Shown here piece by piece: positions 2,705-60,770 of a stretch of DNA of 64,000 nucleotides. The first letter of the stretch is position 1, and every line of letters begins with the position of its first letter. The translations under genes and the position numbers were made by a program. The DNA is from Sphyrna mokarran (Eukaryota). The DNA lies in assembly GCA_024679065.1 (NCBI GenBank), contig JAGIQG010000043.1, positions 2,170,001 to 2,234,000 of the forward strand, read 5' to 3'. Under the pieces are notes generated by a model that had not been told where the DNA came from, did no database searches, and saw nothing but the letters and a program-made list of their open reading frames with translations.

Positions 2705-2807
2705 CTGATCTACCATTTTTTACAACTCCAAATGAAAATGAAGACTGACAGTTGAATCAATATGACTAGGACACGAATTCCAGAAGAAACGACCTCTCTG
2801 CACCAAT
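2705..2807 (-). CDS. A1 exon 4, Cys-stalk + TM (DWCREVVSSGIRVLVILIQLSVFIFIWSCKKW*)
   Basis: ctctttag| acceptor and G|GTGAGG donor; homologous to the 102-nt A2 TM exon; one extra base in the A-run region gives TAG right after the TM. Confidence 0.75.
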
Positions 2808-4392: not shown

Positions 4393-5380
4393 ACATAGAA
4401 CATAGAACATTACAGCACAGAACAGGCCCTTCGGCCTTCGATGTTGCGCCGACCATTATAAAAAGCAATGCCCCTCCAAACTAAACCATTCCCTTCTCTT
4501 CCATATACTTATCAACTAACCTCTTAAACGCCACCAAACTTGCGCATCCACAACTGCTGCAGGCAGGGCATTCCACTCCCGAACCACCCTTTGGGTAAAG
4601 AACCTACCTCTGATATCCGTCCTATAACTATCACCCCTTAATTTAAAGCTGTGTCCCCTCGTGCTAGCTTTCTCCATCCTAGGAAAAAGGTATCACTGTC
4701 CACCCTATCTAAACCTCTAATCATCTTATATGTTTCGATTAGGTCTCCTCTTAGCCGCCTCCTTTCTAATGAAAACAACCTCAAATCCCTCAGCCTCTCC
4801 TCATAAGACCTGCCCTCCATACCAGGCAACATCCTGGTAAACCTCCTCTGTACCCTCTCCAATGCCTCCACATCTTTCTTATAATGTGGGGACAGAACTG
4901 CACACAATACTCCAAGTGCGGCCGCACTAGAGTTTTGTACAGTTGCAACATGACGTTGCGGCTCCGAAATTCAATCCCTCTCCCAATAAAAGCCAAGCCT
5001 CCATATGCCTTCCTAACAACCTTCTCGACCTGACTGCCTACTTTCAGGGATCTATGCACATACACACCAAGATCCCTCTGTTCATCTAGACTACTAAGAA
5101 TCCTACCATTTGCCCTATACTCTACACATTTATTATTTCTGCTATAGTGCATTACCTCATACTTTTCCACATTAAACTCCATTTGCCACCTCTCGGCCCA
5201 GCTCTGCAACTTGTCCAAGTCCCTCTGCAAACTATAACACCCCTCTTCACTATCTACCACTCCACCGACTCTAGTGTCATCTGCAAATTTACTAATCCAT
5301 CCTTCAATACCCTCATCCAGATCATTTATAAAAATTACAAACAGCAGGGGCCCCAAAACAGACCTCTGAGGTACACCATA
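4393..5380 (-). mobile_element. Young CR1 LINE 3' fragment (RT C-terminus + tail), specific to duplication copy 1
   Basis: ORF GPLLFVIFINDLDEG...SKFADDT...[16 protein letters not shown]; (ttctatg)n tail; empty site gtgttactgacat at ~57721 in copy 2. Confidence 0.92.
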
Positions 5381-5869
5381 CTGACATGAGGATGGAAAAT
5401 TTAAATATAACTCTTATGTGAGGAGGTAGATTTAGATTGATTAATAGGCTTCCCTGAAGCAAAGTGAGGTAAATTAATTCACAGCCCTTCCGGGCAAAGA
5501 TGTCAATTTCGCCTCTTGTCTATGGTCTGTTTGTGTTGTTTGCAGTATAGAACTGATCTCATTTCCATTCTTAGAATCACTCTCCATAAAAGGAGGATGG
5601 GAGCAAATAATAAACTTCAAAAGAGAAATCACTTCTTGACATGGAGGTGAAAACCTGAAAGGGCGAGGGGTAAAATGGTGAGCAGAACAACATCGCTGTT
5701 TTGAAGAATGATTCTCTGCATAGAAGACTGAATGAGATATTTCTGGGTGCATTGCTCAGAGATTCTTACATGTTTTCAGGAATATAAAGCGAAACGTGGA
5801 AGTGTGTATCTAACGTGAACCTACTCTGGGTAGGTGCAACCAATGCAGTCTGACATATTTTATCAATTG

Positions 5870-5956: not shown

Positions 5957-6930
5957 ATACACTCAGATATATGTCGATATACAACGCTTAGATATTTATG
6001 TATATACAAACATAGACAAAAACGCTCAATATTTCTCTTTATGCACACATTTACACGCACGCTCAGATACTTACCCATACGCACAAATAGACACACATCC
6101 GTTCAGATATTTATTTATGTACAACACATAGACACACATTTGGCTCATATATTTACAGATACACAGACATAGACACACATTCTCAGATCTTTATCCATAC
6201 GCACATGCAAGCTTAGTTATATGTATGTATGTTTATATATTATATATATATATTCTCAGACATATATATATATATTATAACCTCACGCCCATTTACGTAT
6301 CCATATACACATATTCAGATATATAACTACATACACACACAAGTTCCGATATTTATCTACATTCACAGTTCAGATATATAATCATATGCACAGATGTTCA
6401 GGTATGTATTAATACACACACGTCTAAGTCTGAGATATCCACGAACAGACTCAAAAACTGCTTCTTTCTTGCTGCCTTCGGGCTTTTGAATGCACCTATC
6501 TTGCAATAAGCTAATCTTTCTCTAAACGTTAACTGTGTGTAAAACAACATGCTGTACTCTCTCCTTTCATTCACCCCGTGAACTGTATGAACGTCATGCT
6601 TTGTCAAAATAGCATACAAGAAATTATACATTTCACTGTATACTAATGCATGAAAAATAATGCTTCAAATGAAATCAAATGCACATATGCTCAGGGANNN
6701 NNNNNNNNNNNNNNNNNNNNNNNNNNNNNNNNNNNNNNNNNNNNNNNNNNNNNNNNNNNNNNNNNNNNNNNNNNNNNNNNNNNNNNNNNNNNNNNNNNNN
6801 NNNNNNNNNNNNNNNNNNNNNNNNNNNCACACACAAACAAACGCACACACGCATAGTCAGAATCCCATATATGTTTATACATACAAACACGCACACACGT
6901 ACAAACATACACACACGCACACATATGCCA
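5870..6930. repeat. (CA)n microsatellite and CTCAGATAT/CA compound repeat with N gap 6698-6827; includes a Rex1 tail fragment
   Basis: Seen directly; the related array lies at ~58330-59320 in copy 2. Confidence 0.85.
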
Positions 6931-7010: not shown

Positions 7011-7341
7011 CTTTCCAATTTTCAGTTGCCTTAGGAAACGAAACACTTTTTGTCCAATATTTCCTCGGAGTCCCCAGTTGAGCAATACAATTACAGATAG
7101 CGCCGCTTCTCCACGTTACCCCCGACACCATGACGTTACACCTGACGGGAGGAGGTCCCGTCCTCCTCCATTGTCCCTGGATCAGTCGATCCTTCAGCGA
7201 CTAAACCGGAAATATTCCAGAAAACAGCAATCTGGTTGGAAGAAACTCCATTGACCAAACACACCAAGGGGACGGTATCATTCACATCCAGCTCATCCGG
7301 CGGGATAAATACCTGCACTGCCGTCTTGTTGGTAGAACTGT
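7011..7341 (-). CDS. A1 exon 3, C1-set Ig domain with +1 frameshift near 7147
   Basis: VPLVCLVNGVSSNQIAVFWN...EDGTSS then a premature TAA. Removing one base restores VRCNVMVSGVTWRSGAICNCIAQ...ENWK up to donor G|GTGAGA. Confidence 0.85.
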
Positions 7342-7431: not shown

Positions 7432-7758
7432 CTCCAACTTGTAGTGTGGGTCCATTCTGGAGCGGTGCATTGCTATCCTTATCAGCACAGTAGTAGGAAC
7501 CCGAGTCATTCGCCTGGACATTGCGAATTTCCAGGATCAATTCACGTTTGTCGTGGCCTTTTTTAGAAATAAACTTACAATCAGCCTCCTGACAGGCTGG
7601 GATATCGATTACTTTCGGGATTTCACCAACATTTTGTTTGTACCAGAAATAGCTGGCCGCGACTTCCACCTCGAATTCCAGTTGACAGGTTAAATCCACC
7701 GTCTGGCCGACTTCGGCTGTCACTGTGAAGAGCCTTTGAGGTAGAGAGGAGTCGGAAT
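7432..7758 (-). CDS. A1 exon 2, V-set Ig domain with degenerate J-like strand
   Basis: ttacag| acceptor; GQTVDLTC...YFWYKQ...LEIRNVQANDSGSYYC...LQNGPTLQVG; donor G|GTAAGA; 327 nt open. Confidence 0.92.
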
Positions 7759-8353: not shown

Positions 8354-8408
8354 CATGAGACCACAACGCATGGAGAATGAGTATCAGGGATAAAGATTGC
8401 TGGGGCAT
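8354..8408 (-). CDS. A1 exon 1, signal peptide MPQQSLSLILILHALWSH
   Basis: ATG at 8408, hydrophobic core, phase-1 donor G|GTGAGT; a second in-frame donor G|GTGAGA lies 15 nt downstream (exon end 8339); conserved in A2. Confidence 0.8.
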
Positions 8409-28461: not shown

Positions 28462-28506
28462 TTAAATTTTTGGATCCTCGTTAAAGGCCAGGCGAGCGTA
28501 AAGTGT
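28462..28506 (-). CDS. B exon 6, TLYARLAFNEDPKI*
   Basis: cttttcatccacag| acceptor, phase 0, TxYxxL motif positioned like the A tail motif. Confidence 0.68.
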   Translation of the reverse strand, partial: TLYARLAFNEDPKI

Positions 28507-31500
28507 CTGTGGATGAAAAGTGATCTGTTAGCGTGACACACACCATTATTATAGTGACAGGTGAGACCATTGAGTCCCCCCAATCCTCCGCCTCCCCCCC
28601 CCACTCCATTCAATCGGCTCATGGCTGCAAGGTAATTCAACTCACAGTCACCCACTAATATTGAATAATCCTTAATCCCTCCCCAATATAAATCTAACTG
28701 TCGCATCTCTGGAGTACCAATTGCCCAATGCTCTATATAGCGTTTTAGTGACCAGTATTCCGCCCCGCGTTCTGTGAAGATTTATTGTTGTCACATATGT
28801 GAGTATGCATTGAAATGTAATGATTCTTGCCCACTGTACAAACAAAGTGTATCGTGTGTGAAGAATGAAAGGAGAAGGTGCAGATTATAGTGTTACAGTG
28901 ATAGACAGGTTTGAAGAGAAAGTTCAACTTAACATGAGACAGGTCAATTCTATTGCCTGATGGCAGCAGGGAAGGAGCTATCCTTGCGTGACCTCAGAAT
29001 TGTATATCTTTTTTCCCGAAGGAAGAAGAGGGAGAAATAAAACGTATTCAGGCTGCGTGAGGTCCTTGATAATGGTGGCTGTTTATATAGAAACAGAAGA
29101 TTGCAGCAGGGAGAGGTCATTTGGCCCTTTGAGTCTGCTCCAGCATTCATTATGATCATGACTGATCGTCCAGCCCAATCGTCTAATCCTTCTTTCTCCC
29201 CATAAACTTCGCTCCCAAGTGCTGTATCCAGCCACCCATTGAATACATTCAATGTTTTGGCATCAACTGCTTCCTGTGATAATGAATTCCACAGGCTCAC
29301 CGAGTGAAGAAATGTCTCCTCACCTCCGTCCTAAATGGTCTATCCCAAAACCTCAAATAGTGACCCCTGATTCTGGACTCCCTTCACTATCGGGAACATC
29401 CTTCCTGTATCTACCCTGTTTAGCCTGTTAGAATTTTATAAGTCTCTGTGAAATCCCCCCTCATTCGTCTGAACTCCAGTGAAAACAATTTTAATCTGGT
29501 CAATCTCTCCTCATGCGTCAATCCCGCCATCCCTGGAGTGAGCCTGGTGAACCTTCGCTGCACTCCCTCCAGAGCCAGAATATCCTTCCAAAGTGAATGC
29601 ATTTGGTATGTCTCCTGTTCTGTCCAAGACTGCAAGAACTGGTCTTGTCCCATTATTCAAACCATCATCCCCTCCATTGACTCTATCTCCACGTCCTGTT
29701 GCCTCAGGGAAAAGCAGCCAACATAATCGAGCACCCCGACCCCACCCACGCATCCCGGACATTCTGTCTTCCACCTTCTCCCATTGGGAAAATGATACAA
29801 AAGTCTGAGGTCAGGTACCAACCGACTCAAGAACAGGTTCTTCCCTGCTGCTGTCAGACTTCTGAATGGACTCAACTCGCACTAAGTTGATCTTTCTCTA
29901 CACCCTAGGTATGACTGTAGCACTATATTCTCCACTCTCTCCTTTACTTCTCAATGAACGATATGCTTTCTCTGTGTAGTGCGCAAGAAACAATACTTTT
30001 CACTGTATCCCATACACGTGACAATAATAATCCAAATCTCAAATATTAAGCAAAACATACTTTCACTGTACTCCAATGCTGTGACAATTCCTGTACTCAA
30101 TGAACGGTATGCTTTGTCTGTATAGCGCGCAACAACAACGCTTTTCACTGAATCCCAAAACACTTGCCAATAATAAATCCAATGTATGTACTCTGTGAAT
30201 GGTATGCTATGGCTGTGAACTGTGCAAAAAACAATACTTTTCACTGTCTCCTAATGCATGTGCCAATAATAAATCATAAATAAATCATAAATCAATAATA
30301 AATCATAATAAATAATAAATAGAGTATGTACTCTATAAACGGTATGCTTTGTCTTTATAGCGCGTAAGAAACAATACTTTTCACTGTATCCCAATATATG
30401 TGACAATAACAAACCAAATCTATGTACTCTATGAATGGTATGCTTTGTCTGTATAGTAGACAAGAATCAATTCTTTTCACTGTATCCCAATATATGTGAC
30501 TATAATAAATCAAATCAAATCAAATGTGCCATGAATGAATTAAACAAAAAAAGCAAACTTGAAAGAAGTTATTCGGCCTCGAAGCTTTCTCTGCCCATGG
30601 AAGCTGCCAGGTTTGTTGACCTTTTCTAGAATTTTCTGTGTTCATTGTCAATTCCAAACCGCGGATAAATAATTAATGAAAAGTATCCGCGCGGTATGTA
30701 AAAAAAAATCCAAACATTCACCTCTTTATTCTGTTTGTGTTCTCTGAATTCTGTCAGTTCCTCATCAGTGTCCGCGGGTCCTGTTAGAAAGAGGGATTTA
30801 AACTGAAATTTAAAATGGACTAATTTCACACCGAATTCGCTCAGAATTATCAATAACTCGGTGATAGATGTGTGGATTGAGAACGCCGCGGAGTAACAGA
30901 TTCCCCCCAAAATCGCTACCTCTCTGCCGGTTCCTGCAGATCCTTCTTCCAGCCACAAGGACCAATCCCAGAAGAAGAAGGGCCGCGGCCGACAAACCCC
31001 CGGAAAACACGAATTGACAGATTGGCCAGAACGGAGAATCTGTAAAAAAGCATTAAACTTTCAGTCTACAGAAATCAAGTGTGGAAATAATTAAACAAGC
31101 AAGCATCTTGTTCAATTCAACTGCCCAATTTGACCGGAAAATGAGAAAAACAATTGCACACTTTCCTTTCATGTAATAGAGTCGCACTTTGACAACAGAA
31201 CGCAAGGCGAGGCAAAGAGAGATACTGACAGAGAGACTGAGTACTTTTTGAATAGGGCACACAGAGAGATGGAGCGAGTGAGTGGAACATTCAGGCAGAG
31301 AATAATCATATAATCCCATAGGGCAGAAGAAGACCATTTGGGCCATCAAGTCTGCATCACCCTATCCCCGTCACCTCGCGTATTTACTCTGCTCATCCTC
31401 CTGACTCTCAGCTCAATTTAGCATGGCCAATATACCTATCCCGCACACTTTGGGCACTAAGGAGCAATTTAGCATGACCAATCCACTTAACCCGCGTATC

Positions 31501-34500
31501 TTTGGACACTAAAGGACAATTTGTCACAGCTAATCTAACTAACCTACATATCTTCGATACTAAGGAGCAATTTACCATGGCTTATCCACCTAACTTACAC
31601 ATCCTTTGACATTAAGGGCAATTTACCATGGTTGATCCACCTAGCCTTCACATCCTTTGACACGAAGGAGCAATTTACTGCGGCTGGTCCACTTAACCCA
31701 ACACACCCGTTGACACTAAGGGGCATGTACCATGGCTGATCCACCTAACCGACACATCCTTTGGCACTAAGGGACAAATTAGCATTGCCAATCCACCTAA
31801 CTGGCACACCTTTGGACACAAAGGGGCAAATTAGCATGGCCAATCCACTTATCCCGCACATCTTTGGACACTAAGGGGCAATTTAGCAGGTCCAATCCAC
31901 TTAACCCGCATATCTTTGGACACAAAGGGGCAATTTAGCACGGCCAATCCACCTAACCTGCACATCTTTGGAATTTGTGGGAAAACAGGAGCACCCGCGG
32001 TAGAGCCGATGTAATTGAATGGGATTGAAGTACTGGGAGGCGAAGGGATGAATAAATGGTTCACTGCTGTGCTGAGATAGAGAGCAACACTGGGGATATA
32101 ATCACATATTTCAATTTTACACACTGACACATTGGTCCCTGACCTTGAGATGCGTCATGTTGTCTTAGCCAGATACAAGAAGGCGAAGAGGAGAAGAGTC
32201 CATTCGGCCTATCTCATCTATTCTGCCATCCAACATCACCATCCCTCACCATGTTTACAAATTTCATTTCTCCGCTCTTTCTCTTACTCATTAATCTATC
32301 CACTCTCACAAATGTGCTTCAGTGATTGAACATCCACGAAGAGAGGCAAAGAAGAAGAAGCGAAGAAGAGGCAAAATATCAGAAAATGAAACCGGGAGGA
32401 TTATGATAGAACAGTTCTGATTTAGACATTCATGGATGCCTGCAGAGACATTTGTAATTTACAAAGTTAGGCTGCTTTTAGTAAAGTGTCCCGTTATTAT
32501 TAAATGGAAAGAAAAATAGTCATTGTGAATAGTCACCTTTCTGAGATGAGAAACTGTCACTGAGAATACTGTCACTGGAGTTGACCCGAACGGCGCAGGT
32601 ACAGCGAGCTCCGCTTCTCCAAGTTTCCGCTGGAAGGCTGATGTAACTCCTGACGGTGTAGGTCCCGTCTGGCTCCAGTGTCCCCGAATCGGTCTGTCCC
32701 TCGGCATCCCGCCCCGAAACATTCCAGCGGACAGGAAAAGAATCGGGAGACACACCTCTGACCAGGCACATCAATGGGACCTTTTCCATGACGGGAATCT
32801 CATTCAGCGGCGGGGTGAGGAGGAATATGGAGGGAGAACCCGCTAAATTCGGCAAATGAAACGGAGAACAGTCATTAACTGGTGGACACTTTACTTGCTC
32901 TGAAATACCCACTGCAATAGAATATTAATGGAATTTACCTGCAATCATTAATTTGGAGCCATTTCCGAATATTCGGACCATGTTCTGATAATTTTGCGTT
33001 GCACAGTAATACAGCCCAGAGTCATTTATTCTGGAATCCGCAATGATTAGTGAATAAAGGCGCCCATTTTCAGAAATCTCGCTGGAAAATCTCCCCTCAG
33101 GTCGGCTATTCTCATACGCTGTGTAAACCAAATCCATATTGTTTCTTCGTTTCTGTCTGTACCAAAAGACAGTACTAGCAGCTTGACCCTGGATGTGGCA
33201 GCTGAGATTAACAAGACTCCTTGCAGGGAGTGTCTGAAGTGGCGGAGACTGGGACACGGTGACCTGAGACATTGTAACTGGGAAAGAGAAGGACAGAGAA
33301 CAACAATTACCTCAGGTTATGGAGCATTCCCTGAAGACAGTGGACAATGGCAGTAAACCTCAAACTACCCAGTGACACTTCCCACTACCTCGGGGAAAAG
33401 CAGCCAGCATAATGAAGGACCCCCTACAGACCCCGGACATCTTCCGTCTGGAAAAAGATACAAACATTTGATGTCACGTACCAACCAACACAAGGACAGC
33501 TTCTTCCCTGCTGCTGTCAGACTTTTGAATGGACCTACCTCACGCAAAGTTGATATTTCTCTACACCCTAATTATGACGGTAACACGACATTCTGAACTC
33601 TGTCCTTTCCTTCTCTATCTACGGCATGCTTTGTCTGTATCGTGCGCAACAAATAATACATTTCATTCTATAGTAATACAGGTGACAATAGTAAATCAAA
33701 TCAAATGAAACCACAAAAGTGCCTCATTCAGAAAAAAAATGGAACATAGAACATTACAGCGCAGAACAGGCCCTTCGGCCTTCGATGTTGCACCGACCAA
33801 TTACGAAAAAAGCAATGACCCTCCAAACTAAACCATTCCCTTTTCTTCCATAAAATTATCAACTAACCTCTTAAATGCCGCCAATCTTGGCGCATCTACA
33901 ACTGCTGCAGGCAGGGCATTCCACTCCCGAACCACCCTCTGGGTAAAGAACCTACCTCTGATATCCGTCCTATAACTATCACCCCTTAATTTAAAGCTGT
34001 GTCCCCTCGTGCTAGCTTTCTCCATCCTAGGAAAAAGGCCATCACTGTCCACCCTATCTAAACCTCTAATCATCTTATATGTTTCGATAAGGTCTCCTCT
34101 TAGCCGCCTCCTTTCGAACGAAAACAACCTCAAATCCCTCAGCCTCTCCTCATAAGACCTGCAAATATCTGTCTAATTATGGTGTTAGTTGTCTCATTTT
34201 CCTCTTCCCTTTCGAAAGGTGTAATATCAGTCCATTCACCAGTAAATCTGGTTTAAACACTGGTGAGGGGGCACATGGGAACTGGGTGATGTTAATCACA
34301 CAGAGAGCTTCAGTAAAATTACATTTCTCAATATTGCTTCCATCCCGTTTCTCTCCTTATAGAAAAGCGAATGACTGCGCATGCCTGAAACTGAACAAAA
34401 GAAAACAGAAAATGCTGGAAAATCTCAGTGGGATTAAGGGAATTGCGATCAGTGCCGACTCGATGGGCCAAGTGGCCTCCTCGAGCAGTGAACAAACTGA

Positions 34501-35574
34501 CTCTAGGATTCTCGTTCTAGAGCATCAGTGGAGAGAGAATGGACCCGACGTTTCGAGTCTGGATGCCGCTTGGTCAGCGCTCCATTTGCCTCTCTGCCGA
34601 TGCTCTCAGAATCCGAGAATCATAGAGTCCTACAGTGCGGAAAGTGGCCGTTCAGCCCATCGAGTCTTCTCTATTCCCGCCAACCCACATATTTACACTG
34701 CTAATCCTCTGCTACAAAGCGGCAATCGAGCGCGGCCATTCAAAGTAACCTGCGCATCTTTGGATATTGGGAGGAAAGATGAAAGCACGGATGAAACCCA
34801 CGCAGTCACGGAGAGAACGTGCAAACTCTGCAGACAGTGACCCAAGCCGGGAATTCAAACCTGGCGCTGTGACCACTGTGCCACTGAGATCTTTCAGCAC
34901 TTTCTATTTTTGCCTCGTTTCTTTTCCTCCGTTGACTTTGGGCGCCAAAGTCTGTTCAAGAATTTATAACTGACTCTGAAGTTTTACTTAAAAAGCTTTT
35001 TCTCCCACGTGGCCAATATTGTTAAGGGAGTCTATTCACAATGCATATCTCAGGAGAAATGAAAATCAGATTAATTCCATTCTAATCATTGTTATGAATC
35101 GACGTTGCATTGTCTCAGCAACATTTGATTCATTGTTAAACTTGCACGCTAAATCACAACTTACAGAACTGCTGAAGCCCGGGGAGGGGGACCGTTTAGC
35201 CCTACCAATTTGAGTTAAATCTGTAAAGGTTTCGCTCATATTATCGAATTTCCCCTTCAAATTTGTATCCAATTCCCCCATTTTGAAAGTTCCATTTCCC
35301 CCGTTTGAAAGTTCCTTGTTGGATCTACTTCCTTCGCCCTTTGAGGCAAAAGCCTTCAGATCACAGCAGCTCAGATGCGCTAAAAAAAATCCCCTAATTT
35401 CCCTCTCTGTTACTTTGACCAAATTCATATTCCCTTGGTTCCAGAAACTCTTGCTAACGGAAACAGTTTCTACCTCTTCGCTCAATCCATAACCTTCTCC
35501 GTTCTATCTGAATATAATGAGGATATCTCACCCTGGAAGAGATGGAACAATGCACAGATACCGAGGAAACCCAT
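28462..35574 (-). CDS. Gene B: intact ~303-aa non-rearranging VJ-C1-TM receptor with ITSM/ITIM-like tail (PRARP/VJC1-like)
   Basis: Exons 35574-35532, 33277-32939, 32842-32537, 31039-30920, 30780-30722, 28506-28462 join in frame (912 nt including stop), all introns GT-AG. Confidence 0.85.
29085..29590 (-). mobile_element. CR1 LINE 3' fragment (older subfamily) in B intron 5
   Basis: KDILALEGVQRRFTRL.PGMAGL..EERLTRLKLFSLEFRRMRGD. Confidence 0.8.
29600..30525 (+). mobile_element. Rex1-type LINE 3' end with tandemly reiterated tail
   Basis: accaaccgactcaagaacagg..., then five copies of tgaa(c/t)ggtatgcttt...tacttttcactgt...; a similar reversed array lies at ~36180-36470. Confidence 0.7.
30722..30780 (-). 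CDS. B exon 5, cytoplasmic (GPADTDEELTEFREHKQNKE)
   Basis: ttctaacag| acceptor, GAG|GTGAAT donor, 59 nt, phase 1 to 0, the same phase pattern as A exon 5. Confidence 0.72.
30920..31039 (-). CDS. B exon 4, Cys-stalk + TM (DSPFWPICQFVFSGGLSAAALLLLGLVLVAGRRICRNRQR)
   Basis: ttttttacag| acceptor, hydrophobic segment followed by basic stop-transfer residues, G|GTAGCG donor; 120 nt. Confidence 0.82.
31310..32000 (-). repeat. V-SINE with ~11 tandem 52-bp units
   Basis: Unit ctttggacactaaggggcaatttagcatggccaatccacctaacc.gcacat; period 52 (31862 to 31914). Confidence 0.85.
32537..32842 (-). CDS. B exon 3, C1-set Ig domain
   Basis: PSIFLLTPP...VPLMCLVRGVSP...VRW...DGTYTVRSYISLPAETWRSGARCTCAV; 306 nt, phase 1-1. 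Confidence 0.92.
32939..33277 (-). CDS. B exon 2, germline-joined VJ domain
   Basis: QVTVSQSP...VNLSC...VFWYRQ...GRFS...DSGLYYCATQNYQNMVRIFGNGSKLMIA; FGxG J motif in the same exon; no RSS seen. Confidence 0.95.
33740..34162 (-). mobile_element. Young CR1 3' fragment in B intron 1
   Basis: [27 protein letters not shown]...; (ttctatg) tail. Confidence 0.9.
34610..34885 (-). mobile_element. V-SINE
   Basis: ggagagaacgtgcaaactctgcagacagtgaccca...gggaattcaaacc central and head motifs. Confidence 0.65.
35532..35574 (-). CDS. B exon 1, signal peptide MGFLGICALFHLFQ
   Basis: ACAATGG start context, hydrophobic, phase-1 donor G|GTGAGA; joins to VTMS-QVTVSQSP. Confidence 0.72.
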
Positions 35575-50704: not shown

Positions 50705-50782
50705 TCATTTCCCGATCTTCTTTTTTGACCTTTTTTCCAATGCAGCCAAATCCAGGGAGGCGTAGAGAGGTCCACCCTGAGA
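50705..50782 (-). CDS. A2 exon 6, SQGGPLYASLDLAALEKRSKKKIGK*
   Basis: 78 nt open, YASL ITIM-like motif. Confidence 0.72.
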   Translation of the reverse strand, partial: SQGGPLYASLDLAALEKRSKKKIGK

Positions 50783-50877: not shown

Positions 50878-50927
50878 CTGTATTCTACGCTGCGTTTTCA
50901 AGTTCGTCTCTGTTTGACCGTGATCCC
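50878..50927 (-). CDS. A2 exon 5, cytoplasmic (GDHGQTETNLKTQRRIQ)
   Basis: AG/GT boundaries identical to A1 exon 5. Confidence 0.7.
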
Positions 50928-53357: not shown

Positions 53358-54445
53358 AATAGTTTGAGGTTATAGGGGAAACCTTTTAGATCTAAAATGA
53401 GGAGAAATGTCTTCCCCTAGAGGGTGGTGAATATATGGATTCATACCACAGAATATAGTTGAGGCCAAAACGTTATGTGATTTCAGGAAAAAAACAAATA
53501 CAGTTCTTGGGATTAAAGGGATCAAATGGTACGGGGGAAAGGAGGATCAGATTGTTGAATTTGATTATCAGTCATTGTCATAATGAATAGCAGAGCAGGT
53601 TCGAAGGGCCGAATGGCATACTCCTTCTTCTAGATTCCATGTTAACAAATGTCGGCAGATAATTGGCAATTATCAGTTAACTGGAGCACTCTCCATAAAA
53701 ATGCTGCAACCAATCAAAAATCATTTTGCTAAACAGGTAAATTGTCTTTTCAGGAAGAATGCATAACTGTTTCCCTTATATATGCTACTCTTGTGTTATT
53801 TTTTGTGCGAATGAATACAAGGCCAAACGCCTCGATGATATGTTTTTGTTTGACAAAGCTCAAGTACTCCATTTATTCAAATTTTCTGTCAAACATGCCT
53901 CAGCAGTTAACCGTCAGTACAAAACAACTGGTGCATGCACCATAGAAACGCCTCTAATAATCAATTTCTACTTCATTTTTTTTTAAATTCTGACATTTAA
54001 ATTGACTAACATTTCGCAGAAACCTACCCATTTGTTGTTCCTTACGTCCCTCTCGATGCCTTCTCTTGCTGAAGCTAAAATTGGATGTTGGAAAAGAACG
54101 CCAAACAAATGTTATATCTGGGCTATCAAATCTCAGATGCGTGCACATTTTTGAAAGTAGGATTGTCCAATGGTCTGATATAAATCATAGAAAATAGAGG
54201 CACACATCCTGGAATCAGTTTTCTGATTGAAATAGGTCTGACAAAATATAAGACAGAGAAAGAGGGGACAATGAACAATGTTAAAATTTGCACACACTGT
54301 TCTCTTACTCACGTGTCATTCTGGGATCCTAATTCTCTGTCTTCTACAATAGAAGAACGTACGATTAGCTAATTAAAAACTGCAAAGAGGAAATCATATT
54401 GAGGGAAAAGATATTAAAATGTCTCAGATAATCACTAATCTTCAC

Positions 54446-54547
54446 CTGATCTGCTTTGCTTACAATTCCAAATGGAAATAAGGACCGACAGCAGAATCAA
54501 AATGACCAGGGCAGTCATTCCAACAGAAACTACCTCTCTGCACCATT
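54446..54547 (-). CDS. A2 exon 4, Cys-stalk + neutral TM (EWCREVVSVGMTALVILILLSVLISIWNCKQSRS)
   Basis: ttttatag| acceptor, G|GTGAAG donor, 102 nt open, phase 1-1. Confidence 0.8.
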
Positions 54548-59400: not shown

Positions 59401-59716
59401 CTTTCCGTTTTCCAGATGTTTTGAGATTCGACACACTCTTCGTCCAATATTCCTTTGGAGTCCCCAGTGCAGATAGCGCCGCTCCTCCAGGTAACCCCCG
59501 ACACCATGACATGACTTCTGATGCTGGAGGTCACGTCCTTCTCCATTGTCCCTGGATCACTCGATCCTTCAGTGACCAGACCGGAAATATTCCAGAAAAT
59601 AACAATCTGGTTTGAAGAAACTCCACTGACCAAACACACTAAAGGCACGGTATCATTCACATCCAGCTCAGCCGGCAGGACAAATACCAGCAATGCCTTC
59701 TTGTTGGTGGAACTGT
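59401..59716 (-). CDS. A2 exon 3, C1-set domain with 14-nt frameshifting deletion near 59468
   Basis: VPLVCLVSGVSSNQIVIFWN...TWRSGAIC then the frame shifts; the F-strand Cys codon is lost relative to A1. Confidence 0.85.
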
Positions 59717-59806: not shown

Positions 59807-60133
59807 CTCCAACCAGTAGTGTGGGTCCATTCTGGAGCAGTGCTGAGCTATCCTTATCATCACAGTAGTAGGAACCCGAGTCATTCGCCTGGACATTGCG
59901 AATTTCCAGTATTAATTCATGTTTGTCGTGGCCTTTTTTAGAAACAAACTTACAATCGGCTTCCTGACAGGGTGGGATATCGATTACTTTCGGGATTTCA
60001 TCAACATTTTGTTTGTACCAGAAATAGCTGGCCACGAATTCTACCTCGAATGCTTGTTGACAGGTTAAATCCACCGTCTGGCCGACTTTAGCTGTCACTG
60101 TGAAGAGCCTTTGAGGTAGAGAGGACTCAGAAT
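59807..60133 (-). CDS. A2 exon 2, V-set domain
   Basis: 327 nt open; GQTVDLTC...WYKQ...DSGSYYCDDKDSSALLQNGPTLLVG. Confidence 0.92.
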
Positions 60134-60715: not shown

Positions 60716-60770
60716 CATGAACCCACAGCGCATGGAGAATGAATATCAGGGATAAAGATTGCTGGGGCAT
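60716..60770 (-). CDS. A2 exon 1, signal peptide MPQQSLSLIFILHALWVH
   Basis: Homologous to the A1 leader, with the same tandem donors. Confidence 0.8.

Follow-up and report, generated by a model that had tools for sequence, protein, structure and literature searches.

The window analysed here, a stretch of 64,000 nucleotides from the 2.77-Gb genome of Sphyrna mokarran (G000:C1027:2170001-2234000), holds two genes, A1 and A2, of a family with one V and one C1 domain, and between them a gene of a second family, B, all on the minus strand. A1 opens with a leader exon of 55 nt (8354-8408) and a V exon of 327 nt (7432-7758), which is open, matches Pfam V-set and runs unsplit to a degenerate J-like end. 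The C1 exon (7011-7341, 331 nt) carries a frameshift near 7147-7152 and a stop at 7136-7138, and the intron that separates it from the transmembrane (TM) exon contains an inserted high-copy repeat (4394-5379, no strand assigned), LINE-like by its copy pattern, for which paralog L020 has an empty site. The TM exon (2705-2807, 103 nt between AG and GT), whose letters and coordinates agreed on re-reading with those given in a previous, sequence-only reading of this locus, encodes an Arg (2773-2775) and a Gln (2752-2754), passes through a six-T run (2716-2721) and ends at a TAG (2710-2712), having one base more than its A2 counterpart (103 vs 102 nt) and then the early stop. Downstream of this stop lie relics of cytoplasmic exon 1 (2572-2602), exon 3 (1198-1247) and the last exon (1017-1094), which encodes PLYISL but is untranslated past the TM stop; cytoplasmic exon 2 is deleted.

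A2 consists of a leader exon (60716-60770), an open V exon (59807-60133) and a C1 exon (59401-59716) of 316 nt, in which the loss of 14 nt near 59469 has taken out the second Cys and thrown the frame off; the predicted product stops after 261 aa, out of frame within the TM, and the gene has no intact frame. The neutral TM and YASL tail previously ascribed to A2 were borne out at the level of exons, in that a neutral TM exon of 102 nt (54446-54547) splices in frame across four further exons (54313-54343, 54028-54074, 50878-50927 and 50705-50782), the last of which encodes PLYASL. The B gene (28465-35574) comprises a leader, a germline-joined VJ exon with FGNG, a C1 exon, a neutral TM with a Cys, and a tail that ends in TLYARL, and could possibly encode a partner chain.

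A DNA search with the V and C1 exons of A1 returned 40 matches, mostly at 0.6-2.83 Mb of scaffold C1027, and from the stretches fetched around these matches, rather than from the whole cluster, we built 37 A-gene models. Each A gene is made up of eight exons (leader, V, C1, TM and four cytoplasmic), and the cluster, which is spread over C1027 and C894, contains about 40 A copies, activating-type forms among them. The layout of unsplit V(J), C1 and TM was confirmed by exon models and by Pfam V-set and C1-set matches on relatives; a C1 exon is present in all 37 models, and the V or C1 exon is broken in at least 8 of them. B genes and some basal A copies have the J-like FGxG, which is degenerate in A1 and its close paralogs. 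Among the fetched stretches, B genes contributed 9 V exons, seven TM exons that were all neutral, and TLYARL in each of the six last exons seen. A and B genes alternate along the cluster and the TM exons of both begin with a Cys, through which the two chains may dimerise. Public proteins of the V-C1 family are named immunoglobulin chains or uncharacterised, and a PDB search returned antibody chains alone; the database name of immunoglobulin light chain was rejected, given a V that is unsplit up to its donor and a TM exon that follows C1.

Reading frames of A1 and A2

A1 and A2 had been proposed as a working activating/inhibitory pair, a role that they cannot fill as full receptors unless C1 is skipped, because the C1 exons of both are frameshifted (331 nt in A1, 316 nt in A2). 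The A1 frame ends after 195 aa at the C1 stop and is therefore not intact from leader to TM. The same lesion occurs in L020 and L033 and is absent from L021, a copy 98% identical to A1, and we take it as real because it comprises several clustered changes and not one slip. Positions 7140-7165 (minus strand), which span the lesion, form a short perfect inverted repeat, as expected from template switching. In sequencing run X1, which derives from either the source sample or another animal, the intact C1 form accounts for 19 of the 19 depth units counted at 7147-7152, and the A1 frameshift is not among the pieces listed; this is no evidence against the lesion, since contigs from this run show presence only, 46 further pieces are unlisted and the origin of the sample is unsure. 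The C1 form present in X1 is that of L021 (G000:C1027:2123236-2125353); this copy has an intact leader, V and C1, continues into a repeat that lies 1.9 kb short of a scaffold gap, with no 3' half assembled, and is a candidate for the working A1-type allele.

Because the V, C1 and TM exons of A1 and A2 are all in phase 1, skipping of C1 would keep the frame in both genes, with predicted in-frame products of V-TM(Arg)-stop from A1 and V-TM-YASL from A2. Judged by its exons, A1 would at best yield a V-only form through C1 skipping, and would otherwise be a pseudogene. Its transcripts may face a further obstacle. No polyadenylation hexamer was found within 1.5 kb after the A1 TM exon, which places the last junction 86 nt past the stop in the A1 subtype; in a second Arg subtype, whose exon-3 acceptor is AA, the last junction is perhaps just 36 nt past the stop. 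Nonsense-mediated decay follows a 50-55 nt rule, and with a stop ahead of three further exons, mRNA of the A1 subtype may be exposed to it.

The arginine module and its spread

In A1, the Arg is followed by 15 mostly hydrophobic residues up to a conserved Trp, and the best 19-residue hydropathy is 2.3 for the Arg form vs 2.9 for neutral forms. The basic residue thus stands in the outer part of the TM, as in activating members of the FcRgamma/CD3-zeta-coupled type, and the short tail is devoid of an inhibitory motif, with the stop of 2710-2712 recurring in 5/5 Arg copies. A first search with the TM exon retrieved 18 matches, 5 of which share the Arg and Gln codons as well as the extra base. A profile search of the fetched loci recovered 36 TM exons, again with 5 that combine an Arg at Cys+9 with the stop; the combination of Arg and early stop for which a survey of paralogs and species had been suggested is thus present beyond A1. 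These five exons fall into two subtypes that are 10.7% apart. Three A1-type copies reside in blocks that are 99.95-99.99% identical and do not count as independent support, which comes instead from the existence of two subtypes. The second, represented by L004 and L005 (90% identical to A1), has the same extra base in a run that is interrupted by a C. Common to both are Thr/Pro to Arg, Leu to Gln, Ser to Phe, the extra base giving the stop, and the loss of cytoplasmic exon 2 in a 1.2-kb deletion whose left breakpoint is the same.

In a tree of 21 TM exons with their flanks, the Arg exons form one clade (100/99) inside a young, tyrosine-tailed group. Ectodomains tell another story: among 36 of them, A1 groups beside L020, L021 and L022-24, and the ectodomain of the other Arg gene does not differ from that of a neutral gene. 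In an AU test on 14 genes, TM topologies that pair an Arg gene with its ectodomain twin were rejected (p-AU 0.0008 and 0.0001). One Arg clade combined with discordant ectodomains implies that the module arose once and then moved, and by these trees the Arg module of this shark lineage is shown to be of single origin and to sit on unrelated ectodomains. As assembled, four of the five Arg modules have no intact 5' half. The module is an orphan in two places and adjoins a broken 5' half in A1.

This history revises how A1 came by its Arg. The suggestion that A1 was converted to an activating form holds insofar as the Arg-plus-stop module is real, derived and shared; a conversion within A1, or from A2, does not hold, as the Arg change predates A1 and arose in the ancestor common to A1 and the second subtype. 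The hand counts on which the suggestion rested were exact, with 21 mismatches over 102 aligned nt and one gap in the TM exon and 25 over 327 in the V exon, but the contrast between the two exons is less special than it was taken to be: among 13 neutral-TM genes, the TM exon differs by 15.4% on average (0-24.5%, 78 pairs) and the V exon by 14.3%. Arg and neutral TM exons differ by 22.5% (26 pairs), and the mosaic ancestry of the module explains part of the high divergence between the A1 and A2 TM exons. Nor does the Arg involve three adjacent substitutions, as had been counted: of the nine exons listed, A2 alone has the preceding ATG, and the Arg codon CGT can be reached by two changes from the common ACT or by one from CCT, which other paralogs have.

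Arg also occurs in another configuration. Four TM exons (C1027:2821586-2821719, C1404:60060, C1404:101248 and C1027:2094945) have an Arg at Cys+7, two residues further out than the module Arg, together with a full YASL tail, and three of the four belong to apparently intact genes. An Arg near the membrane edge can therefore coexist with a tail, and the Cys+7 forms would be either dual-signal receptors or carriers of a harmless edge residue. The NVxR-type TM of other sharks was matched by one weak, neutral hit in a non-exhaustive search of the genome and by 0 of the 36 exons.

An intact pair at 2.41 and 2.48 Mb

About 230-310 kb from A1 and A2 lies a pair of intact genes. The first (C1027:2409464-) has an open frame of 269 aa that ends in the Arg TM, with splice sites that are all AG/GT through the TM; the second (C1027:2481390+) encodes 339 aa and ends in PLYASL. 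Their first 238 aa are identical, as are 712 of 712 bases of the leader, V and C1 exons, and around these identical exons 7.9 kb differ by about 1%. The tyrosine-tailed partner with a near-identical ectodomain is thus C1027:2481390+, and not A2.

Down to 2408279 the Arg gene follows its neutral twin, and from 2408271 it follows an orphan Arg module; the junction (2408271-2408279) consists of about 9 nt that match neither donor, with no long shared stretch. Near the gene it differs from its donors by 0.5-2%, and it looks young (1-2%). Its contig (58,865 nt) is enclosed by two 100-N gaps and at each end mirrors the contig next to it, the identity extending over about 25 kb on one side; in the paralogous A2 unit, the places to which its end and its start map are 33 nt apart, as befits a circularly permuted unit. 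We infer that the intact Arg gene likely originated in a 59-kb tandem duplication, at whose junction the two halves were fused, the contig having been flipped by the scaffolder, and the fusion gene could be present on one haplotype only. Large apparent palindromes are centred on the 100-N gaps at C1027:2386758-2386857 and 2445723-2445822, and because they centre exactly on the gaps, gene orientation in the C1027 scaffold is unreliable. We therefore dropped a head-to-head layout of the intact pair, its mirror axes being scaffold gaps and the contig being circularly permuted. With near-identical blocks and a mirrored contig flanked by gaps, the copy number, orientation and phase of the Arg copies are likewise unsure.

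Relatives in other species

A protein search returned 57 relatives, 6 from sturgeons and 51 from sharks and rays; beyond sharks and rays there were sturgeons only, with no tetrapod relative at E<=1e-30. From the 51, we dropped 14 without a TM call and kept 37, seven of which, from seven species (Heterodontus francisci, Scyliorhinus canicula, Hemiscyllium ocellatum, Chiloscyllium plagiosum, Pristiophorus japonicus, Hypanus sabinus and Mobula birostris), have a TM Arg. A YASL tail is present in none of these seven and in 24 of the 30 others (Fisher p 1.7e-4, for rows that are related and come from automatic gene models, whose tails may be wrong). Six neutral-TM relatives also lack YASL, and Arg together with YASL is absent among those 37. 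In the Mobula form (P0041) the tail Tyr is replaced by His, and the Hypanus model ends within the motif. As far as these gene models go, the association of a TM Arg with loss of the tyrosine tail is supported across the sharks and rays of this V-C1 family.

The Arg itself is at Cys+8 in four sharks, at Cys+9 in the sawshark and here, and at Cys+6 in rays. These three different columns point to an Arg that evolved repeatedly across sharks and rays. On the protein tree, the 8 Arg rows require 7 changes, no fewer than with shuffled labels; this tree cannot count Arg origins, because it is dominated by recombining ectodomains. A protein of Mustelus asterias falls inside the clade of young copies.

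Canonical ITIMs follow [IVLS]xYxx[LV], and the PLYASL found here and in most sharks has a non-canonical Pro at -2. The tails of rays, Heptranchias and sturgeons contain ILYASL, IVYASL, VLYASL and VQYASL, and this canonical ITIM spacing supports an inhibitory ancestry of PLYASL. Three shark relatives (P0006, P0009 and P0023) are isoforms without the TM exon that keep the tail, which suggests TM-skipped forms that would be soluble or cytosolic. In P0028, from Carcharodon carcharias, the TM has an internal Gln and no Arg, and the short tail is without a tyrosine motif.

Adaptor-like genes

An Arg near the outer edge of the membrane pairs with the Asp of FcRgamma or CD3-zeta dimers. The genome contains two zeta-family TM exons that exceed the PF11628 cut-off, one FcRgamma-like and one CD247-like, both with the Asp of CYxLD. 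One of the two lies 1.2 Mb from nicastrin, to which human FCER1G is also linked. Nicastrin was not found on the scaffold of the cluster: it is located with the FcRgamma-like gene on C446, and the cluster is on C1027 and C894.

Discussion

The TM exon of A1 is probably part of a tail-less Arg module of single origin, likely activating through FcRgamma/CD3-zeta, that has been re-placed on different ectodomains and in A1 sits on a frameshifted one. On this account, a tyrosine-tailed ancestor would once have acquired the Arg, the Gln, the extra base with its stop and the loss of exon 2, and recombination would have moved the resulting module onto different V-C1 ectodomains. The module Arg would pair with the TM Asp of an adaptor, FcRgamma or CD3-zeta, and the intact Arg gene and its YASL twin would see the same ligand and signal in opposite directions. 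We hold more tentatively a broader proposal, in which the V-C1 system as a whole is KIR-like in sharks and rays, with an Arg gained repeatedly (in three or four columns), loose 3' cassettes re-mounted by tandem duplication, and A1 and A2 perhaps serving as a V-only pair.

The Arg, the Gln, the extra base and the loss of exon 2 could instead be damage in a dead 3' half that was passively copied. Such neutral decay would suit the frameshifts in both A1 and A2, the 8 or more broken models among the 37, a module that is orphaned twice and attached to a broken 5' half in A1, and an intact carrier only 1-2% from its donors. We nevertheless regard it as unlikely, because both subtypes have kept the TM splice sites, the open hydrophobic frame, the Arg and the Gln over about 11% divergence, and because tail loss accompanies the Arg in 7/7 cases from other species.

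It is quite unlikely that the Arg forms are tail-less decoys, or chains of an A-B disulphide dimer whose signal is set by the TLYARL of B, with the Arg merely at the membrane edge. A decoy needs no Arg, yet seven other species have tail-less forms with an Arg, which recurs at three columns, and tail loss alone is common (six neutral models), yet Arg with YASL is unseen among the 37. What speaks for a partner chain is the alternation of A and B genes with a Cys at the start of both TM exons, the neutrality of all seven B TM exons with TLYARL in the six last exons seen, and the four exons that have a full tail in spite of an Arg two places further out.

That the intact Arg gene is an assembly chimera or a false duplicate, which would leave the genome without a working activating member, is suggested by the gaps that bound its 59-kb contig and by ends that mirror the neighbours, with about 25 kb identical on one side. 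Against this, the junction has no long overlap and contains about 9 nt that match neither donor, the gene is 0.5-2% from both donors nearby, and a tandem duplication would predict the circular permutation seen in the contig; we consider an artefact very improbable. Finally, a homopolymer error that hides an open A1 tail, once offered as an alternative cause of the stop, can be dismissed: the extra base does fall in a six-base run in the A1 subtype, but L004 and L005 carry the extra base although a C interrupts their run, the one-base-shorter form makes up 27 of 150 depth units at 2715 in run X1, where the comparison was swamped by repeats, and the deletion of exon 2 makes a normal tail impossible anyway.

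Activating KIRs signal through a Lys that pairs with DAP12. In a study of activating KIR and Ly49 receptors, the inhibitory form is described as ancestral, and activating forms as arising through a charged TM residue and tail loss, recurrent, short-lived, often disabled, spread by recombination onto other ectodomains, and clustered in signalling-domain trees rather than ectodomain trees (Abi-Rached and Parham, 2005; PMC2213150). The shark Arg module resembles this account in its probable inhibitory ancestry, charged TM, tail loss, likely recurrence, recombinational spread, signalling-domain clustering and frequent disablement. It differs in that the family is an unrelated, antigen-receptor-like V-C1 protein and in that the Arg is near the outer edge of the membrane. 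A study of SIGLEC11 and SIGLEC16 reports near-identical ectodomain exons, pseudogene alleles that take part in exchange, and gene conversion (Hayakawa, 2017; PMC5701461). The shark system shares the near-identical ectodomain exons of a gene pair and the involvement of pseudogene copies in exchange, whereas its intact Arg gene has the look of a fusion made where a duplication joined, and not of a product of gene conversion.

LILRA, FcalphaRI, NKp46 and NKp30 combine a TM Arg near the extracellular side with a very short tail and couple to FcRgamma/CD3-zeta. The Arg form is like them in its outer TM Arg, its very short tail and the adaptor-like genes in the genome; those receptors have C2-type domains or a single V, whereas the shark family has V plus C1, with coupling that is predicted. 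NCR3 has a single V, and an identity with NKp30/NCR3, which would require a single V without C1, was rejected given the C1 exon in 37/37 models. SIRPs have a V plus two C1 domains; the gene models have one C1, and SIRP, merely a lower Atlas look-alike, was likewise rejected.

The best candidate name for the family is PRARP/VJC1, said to have been described by Fu and by Ohta in 2019 and reportedly a non-rearranging V-C1 system with a TM Cys, a tyrosine-motif tail and two gene types side by side. The shark family matches this description in its unsplit V(J), C1, TM with a membrane-proximal Cys, tyrosine-motif tail and two gene types, and departs from it in that some 40 A copies are clustered and include activating-type forms. 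For comparison with systems of this type we drew on portions of PMC10751288, PMC12227049 and PMC11599192. The passages seen of one of these describe UrIg and UrIg2 as non-rearranging V(J) genes of sharks and rays, UrIg2 having nine C1 domains in the nurse shark (Flajnik, 2025; PMC12227049). On that partial description, the V-C1 family shares the non-rearranging V(J) and differs from the nine-C1 UrIg2, and no V-C1 paired family is described in those passages. A literature search of openly accessible main texts yielded no account of the V-C1 family as paired receptors. Judged from its sequences, the shark V-C1 family is a case of KIR-like paired-receptor evolution, a principle that is itself already known.

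Little is known of polymorphic paired receptors in cartilaginous fish. Two intact genes that have the same ectodomain but opposite membrane modules offer a test system ready for use, in which one ligand hunt serves both receptors. If true, repeated origins of the Arg in sharks and rays would extend to the oldest lineage of jawed vertebrates the rule drawn from KIR and Ly49, that adaptors are old and activating receptors young and short-lived, and would do so in a family shaped like the proposed precursor of antigen receptors.

Two further copies deserve mention. An otherwise intact YASL gene (TM exon region at G000:C1027:2750361-2750494) has a GC donor after its TM exon. The entire contig G000:C782:1-54699 is a permuted copy of a 53-kb unit, starting at A1 position 5390 and ending at 6324; it is 99.994% identical over 48.6 kb to C1027:1884861-1933491, and its V exon has a large deletion.
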